This document shows positions 9,001 through 15,000 of a stretch of DNA of 19,235 bases, one piece after another. Each line of letters starts with the position of its first letter. The stretch's first letter is position 1. The position numbers are program-made. Origin of the DNA: Elusimicrobiota bacterium (lineage in GTDB: Bacteria; Elusimicrobiota; Elusimicrobia; UBA1565; UBA9628); contig DAHVNA010000037.1 in assembly GCA_027319565.1 (NCBI GenBank), positions 1 through 19,235 on the forward strand. Reading direction: 5' to 3'.

Positions 9001-12000
9001 CTCGACTAAACCCGCCTGCCCATATTTCGCGGCCAGCATCAGGGCCGTGCGGCCATAGATGTTTTTGGCGTTGAGGTCCGCTCCATTAAGGATTAAAAAA
9101 TGCGCGACCTCCATCTGTTTTTGGGAAATCGGGGAAGATAAATGGCGAACAGGCATTACATGAAATTTCGGAAAAAGAAAATCGGGCCGGATAAAACCGC
9201 TGTCATTCCAAAGCTGCGGCATATCGGCATGGCCGTTGGAGGCGATTTCCATTAAGGCCGTGTCTCCGGCCTTGTCAACCGCGTTGATATCGGCGCCCTG
9301 ATCAATGAGGCTTTTGACTTTGGAAAGATCCCCTCTGGATACGGCGCGGAAAAATTGAGAGTTCAGTCCGGCGAAAGAAGAACGCGGCAAGAAAAGAAGC
9401 AAAACGGAAAGTAACGGGAAGAAACAGAAAGGCGAAAATGGGAAGAACTGACCTTTGTTTGTCTTTTTGATCATCTTTGATCGAACTGCTTTGACTCATC
9501 CCAAGAATCCCAGCACTCATTGGCATGAAGTAAAAGCTCGGGGTTTTCCTGCATCCGATCTATAAACTTTTTGACGATGGGCGACTCCCAAGCCTTGACC
9601 ACCTTGTCCCAAGCGGATTTTAGTTCTTCTTTCTTAAGATCCGCCGCATAGAAAGGAAGGGCGTTGAGGAGTTTAACCTTGCCGTCGGGAACGACCAAGA
9701 CCATGGATTGCGGGTTTTGAAGTCTCACCACCGCTTCACGGCGAATATCCCAAGGATAAGCTGAAATTTTAACCTTATTGCCGAGAGTCTCGGCCCGCTC
9801 TTTAATTTTTTTGAGGGTTTTTTTCCACGCCTCATCTGAAACCGACAAGCGATCCCAGGCCGCCGCGGCCCGGCCCAAGCGCATCATGGGGCCGGTGACA
9901 AACAGGCGCGCGCCCAATGAATGAGCCAATTCATAAGCGGAGACCGCGTCCTCTAAATTCAATCGATTCGGAACGAAAACAAATTCCGGCTCGAGTCCCG
10001 CTTGAGACAAGGCCTTAAGAGCATCCACGGCTTTTTTCCAGGAGCCGCTGGGCCTGACGCGCTCATGAATTTCCGGAGTCGAACCGTCGACGCTAATTTG
10101 AATGGAGGAAATTCCCAAGCGCTTCAAGCGTTCAATCGCCGCTGAATCAATGGCAAGCCCATTGGTCTCGATTTTAATTTGCGCGCCGCCGCGGCTTAAA
10201 ACTTCAAAAACATCCCAAGCGTGTTCGACAAAAAGAGGCTCTCCGCCTCCAAAAGCGACATATGGAATTCCCAATTCGACGATCTGGCGGGATAAAGACA
10301 GGGCTTCTTCTTTGGAGAGCTCTTTTTTCCACGCCTTATCCGGACCAGATTCTTCGCAACAGTGAAGGCAAAAAGAGGTGCAGCGGTTAGTCAGCTGCCA
10401 AGCAAGAAAGAGGGGAGCGCTATAATCGACGATCCGCGCCCCCCTCTCGTGAGTCACGTGAACCGAATGTAGGGCTGCGCCATCACCCGCTCGGAAACCT
10501 CTTCCATTTTGGGAGTTTCCCAGACGAGTTTTTTTGAGGCTTTCGCCCCTTCGCTCACGTTTTTTTGGTCGTTCATTCTGTCTCCTTCGTGCCGACTAGA
10601 CCATAGCCGGCAAATCGGACGTTTCCAAAGGCCGCAGCTGATTGGCGGCGGCCAAAACGGAATCGTCTTTAAGAATTTCCTCAAAACCTGAAGATATCTT
10701 AGGATTTTGGTAAGCCTTTTGACACTTCTCCCACGCTTGGATTAAAGTTTCTTTTCTCAAATCAGCGCAGGTATAGGGCAAAAAGGCGGACACCCGAACG
10801 CGGCCATCCGGCAAAATCAAAATGGTGGCGGGAGAAGATACTTTCTTGGCCGTTAAGTCCTCTTGAATCGAAAAAGGCCTAAACAAAATCTCCATCTTTC
10901 CAGAAAACTCTTTTTCTTTCATCTCAAGCAAATTATAAAATTTTTCGTATTCCGCAAAAGAGAGGTTGAGTTTTTCCCAGAGTTTGGCCGCGGTTCCAAG
11001 CCGCATCAAACTGCCGGTGTTTAAGCGAAAAGCCCCGAGACTAGCCGCCAAATCAATGACCGCCGCGGCTTCAGAAACATTGATTCTGGTCGGCGCGAAA
11101 GTAATTTCAAGCGGAAGATTAAATTTCCGCGCCGCGCGGCAGGCCGAAAGGGTTTTCTCCAAAAAAGCGCCGGGGCGCATTTTAGAATAAACGGCCTGGG
11201 TGGCGCCGTCAATTGAAATCTGAAGAGACCGGATCGGCAAATGAGAAAGCCTTTCCGCTTCTTTTTCTCCGAAAATTTGGCCATTGGTCTCGACTTTAAG
11301 ATAAACCCCACCTTGCCCCAAAAATTCGGCCAGCTCGAAAAAATGCGGAACAATCAGAGGCTCGCCCCCCGCCAAGAGAAGATACGGCACTTGGGCTTTT
11401 ACAATTTGGCCCGCGATGTTTAACGCCTCGCCGCGGGAAAGCTCATGGAGAAAAGGCCTTCCCGGAGCGGAATCGGTACAGCAATGCAGGCAGGCAAGAT
11501 TGCAGTCTCTCGTCACCTGCCAGGCGATAAAACTCGGCGCCGAAAGATCGGATGTTTTCATTTAGAGATCAGGAGAGTCAAGGTAAAAACCGAGGTTGAA
11601 ACGAGATAGCACAAAACGATATTTTTAATCGCCGGAATAAAGAGGCGCGGGCTGTCCCAGGCGTTTAAAGCCGTCTTGGCGCTCAGTATCCAAAATGGAA
11701 GCCCAGAAAAGGCCGCGAAAAAAGCCGCTTTGGGAAAAACTCCCGCCGCCGCTCCCACGATCGCAACCAGAAGGCCCAAGGCGGACAATCCCAAGTATAA
11801 GAAAACCCCGTTTTTTCTCCCCAATCTCACGACGAGGTTCCGCTTTCCCACCAAACGGTCTTGATAAAAATCGGGAATCGCGTTGACGACCGCCAAGGAC
11901 ATAATCAAAAGCCCGGGAACCAAGGAAGCCAAAAGCGCTCCCCAAGAAAATCGCCGGGTATAAAGCGCCAAGCTTCCCAAGGTCATCCAAGGCCCGTAGG

Positions 12001-15000
12001 ATAGGCCAATCATCAGTTCCCCCATGCCGCGGTAAACCCATCGAATGGGCGGACCGACATAAAAAAGAGCGGCCAGTCCCCCGAGCAAGGTGTAAAGGAT
12101 GACGGGCCATCCGCCAAATTTCGCCAGGTAAAACCCCACCGCGGCCGCGACCGCAAAGGAGAAAATTCCCAGCCACAGCATCCACTCCGGAATATATTCA
12201 TCATCGGAGGGGTTAAACACGCGATCGGTGCCCATCCGGGCGTCGAAATATTCGTTAAAAGACTCAACCCCCACGACAGACAGGAAAATTCCAAAAAGCC
12301 CCAAGGAGAAAAGATGCGGCGAAAAAGTTTTTTCCACTCCATAGGCCCAGGCCGAGCCTAAAAGATAGGGAAGCAGCCCCGCATAGAGAAAGAAACGATA
12401 GCGAATCAGTGAAAAGACGCGAAAAGGCGCGTCTAAGACACCGGGGACGCCGGGGCACTTCGCGATAGGCGTTTCCGCCGCCATTAAACCTCGACCCATT
12501 TATGGAGTTTTGAAACCACCGTCGGATCTTTTTCCAACTCCTGGACAAAGCCGTAGACCTTGGGGTTTTTCCAGGCTTCCTGAAAATGCTTCCAGACCCG
12601 GCCCAAGGACTCATCGCGCAAGTTTCCGCAGACAAAAGGAAGGGCGTTAATGAGTTTGACCTTGCCATTGGGCAAAATAATGAAAAGCGCCGCTGGATTT
12701 TCAAGGCGATATTTGAGCTCTTCCAAAAGGCCCATTTCATGGAAATAAACTCTCATTCGCCCTTCATATTCCTTGGCTTTGGCGCGCAAGGCGTCAAAAA
12801 ACTCCGGGTAATCGGCTTCATCGGGAGCGGTCATCTTCCAAGTCCTGACCGCGTTGCCGGTGTACATGATTTTGCCGGTATAGAAGCTGTAAGCCCCCAG
12901 TTGATACGCCAAGTCCACGACATCGGAAATTTCCTTGATGTTGAATTTCGCCGGGACAAAGTTGATTTCAATCGGCACGCCCGCAAGGCCTAGATTTTTA
13001 ATTCCCTCGGTCGCCGATTCAAAACGCCCGTGAATCCGCATCTTGTTAAAAGACGCGGGGTTTGCCCCGTCTAATGAAACCTGGACGGCCTTGACTCCTA
13101 GGGTCTTAAGCCGCCGGCAATTTTCAGGCGTCAAATAATGCCCGTTGGTCTCGATTTTCAGCCCCACCCCGCCCTTAATGATTCTTTCGACCATCTCGAA
13201 AAAATGCGGGTGAACCATCGGCTCGCCGCCGGAAAAAGAGACGTAGGGCACCTGTCCTTCGATTAGCTGATCGATAATCGAAAAAGCCTCGTCTTTCGTC
13301 AATTCGTCTTTAAAGGCTTTTCCCGGCCCGGATTCTTCGATGCAGTGAAGGCAGGCGAGATTGCACTCATTGGTGATCTGCCAGGCGACATAAAGAGGCG
13401 CGCCTAAATCTTCGGAAGAAACCGCTTCTTCCGCTTCTTTAACTTGAGCGGGAGAAGCCATTATTCGACGATGAGGCCCTTGCCTTTGAGATCGGTTAAA
13501 AACCCGGCGGCCTCTTTTTCCATATTTCCGGTCGGATCCTCGTATTTTTCCTTCAGTTTCCCGAATAAGGACGCGGAATCGGCTCCGGCGACGATTTCGC
13601 GAACCACCGCCGCGCCTGTGGGGCTTAAGGTATAAACCTTTTCGGACCGGGTCTCAAACAAAACCGCCCCGAATTTTTCCTCTCTAAATTTCACAAATGG
13701 CGCTAATTTCATAACTCCTCCCTTGGATGCGGCCAAACACGCGGACGCGTCCGCCGCTTCTCTTTCAATGATGTCCTCAAGTTCGCGCCGCACGTTTTCG
13801 CGGCTTTGAACGTTGACTGCGTCTTTAGAGTTCGCTTCTTTTTCCGATACGGCAAAATCTCCCGACTTCCAGGCTTTTTTAATCAAGGATTGATAAGACA
13901 TTAAAATTCTCTCTTGGCCATGACTTCAATAAAGAAAGACAGATCTTTGGCCTCGTCTTTAAGCGGCAGACCCAAACACAGGGCTTTCATCGAATCGACG
14001 ATCTCGCGCCCTTTAACGCGCGCTTCATCTAAGAAACCCTCCTTCTTAACGAAAGAAATCGCCTCTTTGACCGCGTTTGAGTCGGTTTCGCCGCGGCGCC
14101 ATAAATCCAAAAAGTTTCCGCGGGTTTTCGGGTTTTGAAGGGCCAAAATGCAGGGCAATGTCAGACGGCGATTCATCAAATCCTGGGCCGCGGGTTTTCC
14201 CGAGACTTCCTCGGTTAAAAGAAAATCATGGATGTCGTCGACAATTTGAAGCAAGATTCCCGCCGATAAAGCGAGCCGCGGCGGATCGGAGGACTCATGG
14301 GGAAAGGGGCTTATTTCGGAGAGAACCTTGCCGCACCACTCAAACAAGGCGCCGGTTTTTCGAGCGGCGATTCCCAAATAAGCGTCTACGGAGACCTCGA
14401 CACTTCCTTTTAGAAATTCTTCCTGAAGCTCTCCGGCCGCCATTTCCCGAACCGTCGTCACCAGATGTTCCGGGGCTCTTGGAGAAATATCGATGGCCTC
14501 TTCAAGGCCTTGAGAAAAAGCGAGATCGCCCAGCAAAAGCGCGACCGTATTTCCAAAAAGAGCGTTCGGCGTGGCCACGCCGCGGCGGGTGTCGGCCTTA
14601 TCCACGCAATCATCATGCAAAAGAGAGGCGTTGTGAACAAACTCCATCGCGCGGGAAGCCGCCTCCGCTTTTTTTTCGTCAACCCCCAAGGCTCTGGCCA
14701 AAAGAAGGCAAAAGCGGGCTCTCAGCATTTTCCCCGGGCGGCCCACGTAACCGGCCAGGGTCTCCCCCACGCGCCCGGAAAGCCTGCGCGCGCGGCTCTC
14801 CATTCCGAGGCGAACTCTCTCGATGGAATCTTCAAGGCTAAGTAGCGCTAGCATAGATTTAGATATCTATTATAGCATTCTGAAAAAAATTCCATCATTA
14901 AAAACGTTAGGTACACGCCCCCGTTAAATTGTTAAATTAAGTAGCGTCTTATTTTATATGCCGAGCCGAAATACATCGAATTTCCTCCGCCGTTTGTTTC

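Follow-up and report, generated by a model that had tools for sequence, protein, structure and literature searches.

Which carrier connects the respiratory enzymes of a bacterium whose genome encodes no known route to a quinone? The question is raised by a window of 19,235 nucleotides (the whole stretch of DNA analysed, from an Elusimicrobiota bacterium), in which a gene for a small peptide stands among genes for radical SAM enzymes and a prenyltransferase (PT). In the host genome (G000, 91.65% complete) we found the respiratory chain that an initial annotation had listed, namely NuoH, alternative complex III (ACIII) genes, cytochrome bd, two haem-copper oxidases and succinate dehydrogenase (SDH), the last being a Bacillus-type SdhCAB that passes TIGR01811 and TIGR02046. 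Di-haem SDHs of this type are typical of menaquinone users. The lack of quinone pathways reported for this genome also held, as MenB and MenG/UbiE were not detected over cut-off, MqnA/D, UbiD and RquA were missing, and tblastn of the genome gave no match to MenC/D/F/G, MqnA/C/D/E/P or UbiD/X queries. The genome contains neither the classical set (MenB, MenD, MenF, MenC, MenG) nor the futalosine set (MqnA/MqnD, MqnC/E, MqnP, UbiD/X), nor that of ubiquinone, rhodoquinone or methyl-plastoquinone (UbiA-type 4-hydroxybenzoate prenyltransferase, UbiD, UbiE, RquA). UbiA-family genes of G000, G150, G188 and the closed genome G251 comprise only haem O synthase and the PT studied here, leaving the latter as the one candidate for a quinone prenyltransferase in all four.

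All seven co-directional genes of the initial annotation were recovered at the same positions on the minus strand, and Pfam returned the same families (polyprenyl_synt, PqqD, UbiA and three Radical_SAM); no Pfam family was found for the precursor peptide in a scan of the window. In the order of transcription, this cassette encodes a trans-polyprenyl diphosphate synthase (13901..14854; PF00348), which is the probable long-chain prenyl donor and an accessory restricted to Elusimicrobiota copies; a PqqD/RRE peptide chaperone (13461..13901; PF05402, E 4e-9), with the RRE at about residues 64-146; the putative core maturase RS1 (12484..13461), a radical SAM protein with an intact CxxxCxxC motif; the membrane PT of the MenA/UBIAD1 clade (11558..12484; PF01040), with both Asp-rich motifs intact; the accessory paralogue RS2 (10596..11561), 38% identical to RS1; the 40-aa precursor (10454..10576), with the ribosome-binding site GAAGGAG 5 nt upstream (10582..10588); and a second accessory paralogue, RS3 (9471..10457), 37% identical to RS1. 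The genes are coupled by TAATG/ATGA/GTGA overlaps. The PT frame can be extended to 12499, and the start at 12484, coupled to RS1, is more likely. RS3 is coupled to a gene for an ankyrin and caspase-domain protein (7873..9474, minus strand; PF12796 + PF00656) with a signal-peptide-like N-terminus. Among the 80 best genome loci, a caspase-domain gene lies directly 3' of the cassette in 8 of 52 Elusimicrobiota-type and 0 of 28 proteobacterial ones, and it is not a conserved cassette part, though coupled downstream here. One genome (G210, locus L081) carries a minimal form consisting of peptide, RRE, RS1 as sole radical SAM enzyme and PT; RS2 and RS3 were not found in it. With a small conserved precursor gene, an RRE and a CxxxCxxC enzyme in one operon, as in radical SAM RiPP systems generally, the operon is by gene content a RiPP pathway in which modification of the precursor is predicted. 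Our literature searches found no description of it.

The precursor combines a variable N-terminus with a W19-x-x-P22 leader motif and an invariant core, A33-T40, containing Tyr36 (codon at 10469-10471, minus strand). The ten residues VMAQPYIRFT had been taken as invariant; in an unbiased set of 71 complete peptides, found without the peptide as query, the last eight close every one, whereas the position before them is Met in 67 and Thr in 4. Synonymous codons differ at all eight core positions (123 distinct DNA versions), and the peptide profile finds 2696 clusters (90% identity), making the family common in environmental sequence. The remark that the leader recalls PqqA stands in part: the PqqA of G257 (locus L093; TIGR02107 over cut-off), in which W-x-x-P is followed by an acidic residue at +7, Tyr at +17 and the stop after +21, shares the spacing of all four features with the cassette peptide, but HHalign gives only 13%, for the leader alone, and Pfam PqqA an E of 0.089 in 1 of 21. 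Because this statistical similarity is weak, common descent of the two peptides is only suggested. The Glu of PqqA, described as joined to Tyr in the cross-link (PMC5715301), lies at +13 and is Met or Thr in the cassette peptide, which therefore lacks Glu-x-x-x-Tyr. The peptide is not a member of the MftA family.

The chaperone belongs to the PqqD family (PF05402, 37 bits; cut-off 23.4); its N-terminal extension of ~63 aa, common in the aligned Elusimicrobiota copies, gave no usable Atlas match. The radical SAM trio lies far below the NCBIfam cut-offs, as annotated (nearest MftC/AhbD/NirJ2, 102-134 bits vs 265-500). Across 108 aligned sequences, RS1 has conserved Cys at 33, 37, 40 and 278, plus 115 at 91%; conserved C-terminal Cys number at most two in RS1 and RS2 and none in RS3. 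The SPASM/twitch cysteine set is absent from the aligned cassette enzymes, which are neither seven-cysteine PqqE proteins (TIGR02109, 53-80 bits vs 381) nor MftC equivalogs with SPASM clusters. The AF2 model of RS1 (pLDDT 94) is closest in fold to SkfB and PqqE.

For the PT, the best NCBIfam match is indeed a MenA model, at 100.6 bits vs a cut-off of 264; against TIGR00751 (cut-off 102) it scores 52 bits and MenA from a men locus 133, which places the PT below the curated cut-off for classical MenA. UBIAD1 is the closest solved structure (E 5e-5). In the 45 sequences matched, the cassette synthase carries small residues at positions -5/-4 ahead of its first DDxxD motif, presumably indicating a long-chain product, and a second, IspA-like synthase of the host genome has an aromatic Tyr at the corresponding site. 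All 45 Elusimicrobiota-type loci that leave enough space upstream have a polyprenyl synthase gene, compared with 0 of 26 proteobacterial ones. Considering that the PT falls inside the MenA-like radiation, that the neighbours of the cassette (see below) are known menaquinone users and that menaquinone producers without a known pathway are reported (PMC13386864), the operon could offer a third way of making genuine (demethyl)menaquinone, in which a DHNA-like naphthalene ring from the peptide module would serve an ordinary MenA. We hold this to be improbable: the cassette PTs form a clade of their own (FastTree support 1.0), and carry Glu where orphan MenA-like proteins have an Asn just before the first Asp-rich motif; none of the five genomes tested has MenG/UbiE over cut-off; one carrier, G277, has a menB-menA locus as well; and the carbons of Tyr would be too few for a naphthalene without further enzymes.

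Among 251 Elusimicrobiota genomes, the cassette PT occurs in 19, MqnA with MqnD in 15 and both in none; the 32 genomes with a COX1-family gene divide into 15 with the cassette, 12 with the futalosine route and 5 with neither. Since the pattern follows family lines, this exclusion amounts to few independent events. In the host order the cassette was found in 69 of 76 genomes, and the absence of MqnA/D and of MenD over cut-off across the order was confirmed (0 of 76 for each). The seven members lacking the cassette, among them G625 (99% complete) and G620 and G076 (97%), also lack any MenA/MqnP-like gene; ~5.4 misses would be expected from genome incompleteness alone. G128, G249 and G216 have oxidases and neither quinone route, so that some bacteria may respire without making a quinone of their own, or by salvaging one.

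Oxidase-bearing genomes without a quinone PT, orphan MenA genes (with polyprenyl synthase, once with MenG) in other Elusimicrobiota lacking MenB or MqnA/D, and the PqqA-like leader would all suit an operon of two functions, in which the PT is a salvage MenA acting on external DHNA while peptide, RRE and radical SAM enzymes make a soluble cofactor like PQQ or mycofactocin. This seems unlikely to us, given that the PT gene lies between radical SAM genes in 76 of 80 loci (by gene calling) and is kept in the four-gene form, that salvage-type MenAs fall outside the cassette PT clade, with G210 carrying both the minimal cassette and a separate pair of orphan MenA and polyprenyl synthase, and that no dedicated dehydrogenase family recurs beside the cassette in the 80 loci.

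The cassette also occurs outside lineages without quinone genes: the 28 proteobacterial loci make up over a third of the 80, and UbiD is present in 9 of 10 such genomes tested. Menaquinol-type enzymes (Frd, NapC/NirT, MtrAB/C, NrfAH, FdnGHI, quinone-reactive cytochrome b or NiFe hydrogenase) adjoin the cassette in 21 of these 28 loci, 20 of them within 2.5 kb, and in 0 of the 52 Elusimicrobiota-type loci. With these classes, which were drawn up from the very cassette loci under test, 1 of 40 windows of 20 kb chosen arbitrarily in 14 of these genomes scored positive, against 11 of 14 for their cassette loci. FrdA of locus L046 scores over the cut-off of the equivalog model for E. coli-type fumarate reductase, and none of the 8 genomes with Frd beside the cassette has MenB over cut-off, MqnA/D or RquA. 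In 6 of 80 metagenome loci a NapC gene is found within the cassette or immediately ahead of the peptide gene, and in G277 (L053) the cassette directly follows pufLMC. RquA is present in carriers G256 and G259; the men genes of G272 lie on a contig whose GC is out of line (0.46 vs 0.65) and which is probably contamination. The cassette was not found in 300 other genomes of the class of carrier G268. Low-potential quinones are described as serving fumarate reductase, menaquinone and rhodoquinone rarely co-occurring (PMC11707229). The proposal that the product stands in for a lipoquinone withstood these checks and is supported by the exclusion with futalosine genes, by the PT being the sole quinone candidate in four genomes and, independently, by the menaquinol-type neighbours in another phylum; because proteobacterial carriers keep ubiquinone genes, however, it looks like a menaquinone (low-potential) equivalent rather than a general lipoquinone.

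The presence of UbiD in those genomes and of a Coq10/START protein gene in 7 of the 28 loci might instead mean that the radical SAM enzymes work like RquA or MenK, altering a quinone that is already there, with the peptide as regulator or co-substrate. We consider this very unlikely, since the host order lacks a quinone pathway on which they could act, a PT and prenyl synthase of its own would be superfluous, and the RRE points to a peptide substrate. As noted previously, the cassette has no conserved release protease or oxidase (no protease or hydroxylase is conserved across the 80 loci), and eight invariant residues exceed the needs of a small head group. These features, along with the known prenylation of a peptide by ComQ, favour a lipidated peptide, be it a ComX-like signal, a membrane anchor or an assembly factor of respiratory complexes. 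We doubt this as much as the salvage function: no transporter, receptor or immunity gene recurs beside the 80 loci, signalling peptides usually diversify while this core is fixed across phyla, and the exclusion with futalosine genes and the quinone of the closed G251 would be left unexplained.

Cumulatively, we put at roughly 60% the probability that the operon makes a tyrosine-derived, polyprenylated low-potential membrane carrier standing in for menaquinone. By analogy with PqqA, PqqD and PqqE, the RRE would bind the W-x-x-P leader and hand the peptide to RS1, which, having the motif for a 5'-deoxyadenosyl radical, would alter the core around Tyr36. Since RS1 lacks auxiliary-cluster ligands, redox-neutral ring closure or fragmentation of Tyr, the latter of the ThiH/HydG/CofH kind, would be likelier than oxidation as by PqqE or MftC. 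We know of no precedent for a single enzyme turning Tyr into a low-potential quinone. Other points against this reading are the seven genomes of the order that lack both the cassette and any MenA/MqnP-like gene, the three proteobacterial carriers having Men or RquA genes, and the want of a conserved protease. At the weakest step, the aromatic head group would be freed by the RS1 radical reaction or by unlinked housekeeping peptidases. The PT may then add a long polyprenyl tail, drawn from the cassette synthase in Elusimicrobiota and from the host's own synthase in Proteobacteria, as their distribution suggests; RS2 and RS3 would be optional tailoring enzymes, perhaps tuning redox potential as MenG does for menaquinone. 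The host order would use the product as the pool carrier of its complex I, di-haem SDH, ACIII and cytochrome bd, and Proteobacteria would use it as a horizontally gained addition for menaquinol-type anaerobic modules.

To our knowledge, respiratory quinones derive from chorismate or related small aromatics, and the peptide-derived redox cofactors PQQ and mycofactocin are soluble. A peptide-derived, polyprenylated pool carrier would link the two fields; its synthesis would be a novel route to a respiratory quinone and, beside menaquinone and rhodoquinone, a third way to a low-potential carrier. It would also explain part of the gap reported by a 2026 survey of 26,264 genomes, in which many lineages are without known quinone pathways and undiscovered quinones are expected (PMC13386864). 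At slightly better than even odds we extend the proposal further: a ribosomal peptide would be precursor to a new class of lipoquinone-like carriers, made by radical SAM enzymes without auxiliary clusters, serving as sole pool carrier of an entire Elusimicrobiota order and spreading horizontally into Proteobacteria as a low-potential kit of four to seven genes for fumarate respiration, extracellular electron transfer, ammonification and possibly the QA site of the photosynthetic reaction centre, its PT clade reaching Omnitrophota, Planctomycetota, Bacillota and archaea, including cultured Acidianus. The PTs of A. ambivalens and A. brierleyi belong to the same clade (41% identity, E 2e-51). Caldariellaquinone and sulfolobusquinone derive from Tyr. 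Both are listed without known genes (PMC13386864), and the cassette might represent their missing pathway in Sulfolobales; this is most improbable, as the 120 matches listed for the Acidianus PT include no named Sulfolobus, Saccharolobus or Metallosphaera, the next being only 48% identical, and as those quinones are described as high-potential (PMC11707229), whereas the bacterial context of the cassette points to low potential. Four genes appear to be enough for a test, with growth of an E. coli menaquinone mutant as read-out, and a cultured archaeon carries the PT.

Among known systems, PQQ biosynthesis (PqqA, PqqD, PqqE) resembles the cassette in its short precursor, stand-alone RRE and radical SAM enzyme of the same fold neighbourhood; the cassette differs in having a membrane prenyltransferase in its core and in lacking SPASM cysteines and PqqB/PqqC, which occur in none of the 80 loci, the PqqB/C frames of L093 having no tblastn match in the host genome. 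Mycofactocin biosynthesis (MftA, MftB, MftC) shares a near-invariant C-terminal core with Tyr, an RRE and a product that is a redox carrier with a tail, as proposed here, and MftC is the best NCBIfam match of RS1 and RS3, yet at 134 bits vs 265; the Tyr of MftA is C-terminal and that of the cassette is not, auxiliary-cluster ligands and MftD/E/F are missing, and the tail would be polyprenyl instead of a sugar. ComQ-ComX also joins a peptide to prenyl chemistry, but in the cassette the synthase has both DDxxD motifs intact and can be missing, the transferase that is conserved belongs to the UbiA type, and the core is invariant and unaccompanied by receptor genes. With the menaquinone pathways (Men and futalosine/Mqn) the cassette has in common a MenA-like PT, a long-chain prenyl synthase and the association with Frd, NapC, Nrf, Fdn, di-haem SDH and ACIII; in contrast, it has a ribosomal precursor in place of genes for a chorismate-derived ring, and never accompanies Mqn in the 251 genomes. 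Finally, it would resemble RquA in being a compact, patchy addition that gives ubiquinone producers a low-potential carrier, but whereas RquA converts ubiquinone with one enzyme, the cassette has its own PT and occurs also where ubiquinone is absent.

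Seven coupled minus-strand genes (9471–14854) make up the cassette of the host genome (G000; 2.03 Mb, 91.65% complete, the window being its contig C42) and encode, in this order, a polyprenyl synthase (PPS), a PqqD-type peptide chaperone (RRE), a radical SAM enzyme (RS1), a MenA-clade prenyltransferase (PT), a second radical SAM paralogue (RS2), a 40-aa peptide and a third paralogue (RS3), none of which reaches a curated NCBIfam cut-off. Searching genome_contigs with RS1 returned 180 related stretches, and the best 80 of these were retained as a locus set comprising 52 loci of Elusimicrobiota type (six titled only 'bacterium') and 28 proteobacterial loci, among them L042, titled Streptomycetaceae and counted here by its gene content, which matches Burkholderiales loci. 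Gene order was identical across all locus rows listed, one of which is partial. In the 98% complete genome G210 a minimal four-gene cassette (L081:6288–8869, contig G210:C28) holds just the peptide, as first gene, RRE, RS1 and PT; no RS2 or RS3 orthologue was found anywhere in that genome. The genes that flank this cassette encode an ECF sigma factor, a zf-HC2 anti-sigma factor and an RND efflux system, with an NrfD-family gene about 15 kb away; G210 additionally holds an orphan MenA and polyprenyl synthase pair (L216), and names from Omnitrophota and Planctomycetota occur among the relatives of its RS1. Of 15 pattern matches on viral contigs none was confirmed, while plasmids gave nothing beyond distant radical SAM matches (3 records, 29–30%) and no match to an Acidianus PT query.

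A scan for promoters and terminators found nothing specific at either operon end. A MarR-like regulator lies upstream of PPS in 18 of the 52 Elusimicrobiota-type loci (e.g. L010:8069–8584) and is absent from the window; in a close relative an insertion of about 1.5 kb breaks RS3 (L078:13100–14612), and frameshifts in cassette genes of several long-read loci (L036, L047, L055, L064) are probably sequencing errors. The surroundings of the cassette in the window (2376–7105 and 14958–19217) are ordinary, with DUF47-PitA phosphate transport, two PAP2 proteins, TRL-like lipoproteins, a PMT glycosyltransferase, DUF2127, an ArfB-like release factor, a diaminopimelate decarboxylase-like gene and PD-(D/E)XK/UvrD-type genes, together with two probable tRNA genes near 2120–2200 and 16400–16480, read from ORF text.

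The peptide was assessed in 81 loci found by enzyme queries, in 71 of which it could be read completely. All 71 end in AQPYIRFT, preceded by Met (67) or Thr (4), and every core codon varies synonymously (123 distinct DNA versions). A peptide profile further matched 2696 protein clusters and at least 528 metagenome stretches; since the peptide itself was the query, core invariance in the protein clusters and in loci L097–L176 is partly by construction, and these were excluded from the independent count. In PqqA from G257 the spacing from W-x-x-P to Tyr to stop equals that of the cassette peptide, which however carries Met or Thr where PqqA has Glu, and a profile comparison of the two was weak. 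The CxxxCxxC motif is kept in RS1, RS2 and RS3 (108, 104 and 80 sequences, respectively), and no SPASM or twitch cysteine set was found in these sequences; the auxiliary clusters of PqqE require a SPASM-type motif, according to the accessible part of one report (PMC5715301). The RS1 structure model (pLDDT 94) is closest in fold to SkfB and PqqE, and an ESM Atlas search with RS1 returned generic radical SAM clusters only. A predicted complex of RS1, RRE, peptide and SAM scored 0.90, and still 0.79 with RS1 replaced, and was set aside as evidence. An N-terminal extension of PqqD of about 63 aa (13713–13901, minus strand) is kept in most Elusimicrobiota copies with PPS and missing from proteobacterial ones; it gave no usable ESM Atlas match and could conceivably serve PPS as a small partner subunit.

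PPS itself is present in 45/45 Elusimicrobiota-type loci with room upstream and in 0/26 proteobacterial loci, and carries small residues at the chain-length positions, which we take to mark a long-chain synthase; G000, G150 and G251 each have two members of this family, the cassette PPS being the second. A ComQ-like role of PPS was excluded, both DDxxD motifs being kept and PPS being absent from 28 proteobacterial loci. A lipidated peptide with another role is an unlikely product in our estimate. Directly downstream of the cassette, an ankyrin-repeat and caspase-domain protein (7873–9474, minus strand) with apparently intact His/Cys dyad motifs was excluded as the maturation protease on account of its signal-peptide-like N-terminus and its occurrence in only 8/80 loci.

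PT keeps both Asp-rich motifs and, in a tree of 72 sequences with haem O synthase as root, falls in a clade (FastTree support 1.0) that takes in proteins from Acidianus, Aigarchaeota, Nitrososphaerales, Hadarchaeaceae, Bacillota, Omnitrophota and Sedimentisphaerales, lineages known here from PT sequences alone. Cultured members are Acidianus ambivalens (QGR21946.1, P0023) and A. brierleyi (AWR93812.2, P0302). Sulfolobales quinones change with oxygen, as the accessible parts of two reports state (PMC6770870, PMC10821996). Among the 120 matches listed for the Acidianus PT no named Sulfolobus, Saccharolobus or Metallosphaera counterpart was found, on which ground the cassette was largely rejected as the caldariellaquinone pathway; a Sulfolobales quinone pathway is scarcely credible to us. 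A Glu before the first Asp-rich motif sets PT apart from orphan MenA-like proteins, which occur with a polyprenyl synthase in other Elusimicrobiota (L082, L084, L086, L087, L088), once with a MenG-like gene and twice with Rnf/Nqr-like neighbours. These Elusimicrobiota have no MenB or MqnA/D, and the orphan genes probably represent naphthoate salvage. A corresponding reading of the cassette, PT as a salvage MenA with the peptide enzymes making a separate soluble cofactor, seems to us doubtful.

The host has genes for NuoH, alternative complex III, an SDH of Bacillus type, cytochrome bd and two haem-copper oxidases, whereas searches of G000 for a Men, Mqn, Ubi or RquA pathway found none. Besides haem O synthase, the cassette PT is the one UbiA-family member in this genome, as also in G150, G188 and G251, a closed genome; G252 has one extra haem O synthase copy. 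The respiratory chains of these lineages have been described, the quinone not being named in the accessible part of that work (bioRxiv 10.1101/765248), and many lineages lack known quinone pathways, according to the accessible part of another (PMC13386864). Across 251 genomes of the phylum the cassette PT occurs in 19 (18 at E < 1e-120, plus G210) and MqnA with MqnD in 15, with no genome holding both; as the genomes are related, this exclusion amounts to few independent events. Among 32 genomes with COX1-family genes, 15 have the cassette, 12 the futalosine genes and 5 neither. Within the host's order, RS1 is present in 69/76 genomes, MqnA/D and MenD over cut-off in 0/76 each. Seven genomes thus lack the cassette, compared with 5.4 misses expected from completeness values; no MenA- or MqnP-like gene was found in them, and three of the seven are 97–99% complete. 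G179 was omitted from the 80-genome searches for MenB and MqnA/D. A genuine menaquinone made by a new route we consider improbable. Ten genomes (G128, G249, G216, G076, G192, G616, G620, G622, G625, G631) carry genes for a haem-copper oxidase or for haem O synthase, and no cassette, futalosine genes or quinone-type prenyltransferase was found in them; gaps in the assemblies, uptake of a quinone or a further route are possible explanations.

Genes for FrdABCD, NapC/NirT, MtrAB/MtrC, NrfAH, FdnGHI, quinone-reactive cytochrome b or NiFe hydrogenase accompany 21/28 proteobacterial loci, within 2.5 kb of the cassette in 20/28. With neighbour classes set after the loci were seen, and leave-one-out applied, 40 windows of 20 kb, taken arbitrarily from 14 of the genomes, gave one weak match, as against 11/14 of their own cassette loci. 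Seven loci fall outside these classes, including those in which the cassette lies behind an ATP synthase operon (L039) or dihydroorotate dehydrogenase (L040), near LutABC (L050) or next to fumarase (L035). In another of the seven (L053:1447–9271, G277) it is inserted among photosynthesis genes and runs in their direction, immediately after pufBALMC and ahead of DUF3623 and an AcsF-like gene. The QA site is occupied by a low-potential quinone in some purple bacteria. A Coq10/START (RatA-like) protein, of a family that binds quinones, adjoins 7/28 proteobacterial cassettes (L023, L030, L033, L036, L047, L049, L050). In eight Frd-linked genomes MenB over cut-off, MqnA/D and RquA were not found, the MenB model scoring 308 in G254 against a cut-off of 343; UbiD is present in 7/8. 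Low-potential quinones serve fumarate reductase, according to the accessible part of one report (PMC11707229). Counter-cases among the 28 carriers are two with RquA and two with MenB over cut-off; the G277 bin also contains a menB-menA locus (L090), and the complete men cluster of G272 (L091, G272:C11) has a GC of 0.46 versus 0.65 for the cassette locus and is probably contamination. That the cassette changes an already existing quinone appears highly improbable to us. A search of 300 other genomes from the class to which G268 belongs did not find the cassette, which is thus rare and patchy there.

Taking the directly observed gene set, motifs, invariance and distribution as our starting point, we propose that RS1, dependent on RRE, would modify the peptide around Tyr36 by radical chemistry, that a small aromatic head group would then be released and receive a polyprenyl tail from PT, with RS2 and RS3 as putative optional tailoring enzymes, and that the product may be used as a low-potential carrier. 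We hold this scheme as a whole to be probable (roughly 0.6); its weakest point is the origin of a quinone-like ring with no conserved protease or hydroxylase. Literature searches, for which subscription papers were mostly out of reach, found no published description of the cassette. Its front end resembles those of PQQ and mycofactocin biosynthesis and its back end that of the menaquinone pathway, yet it belongs to none of the three.
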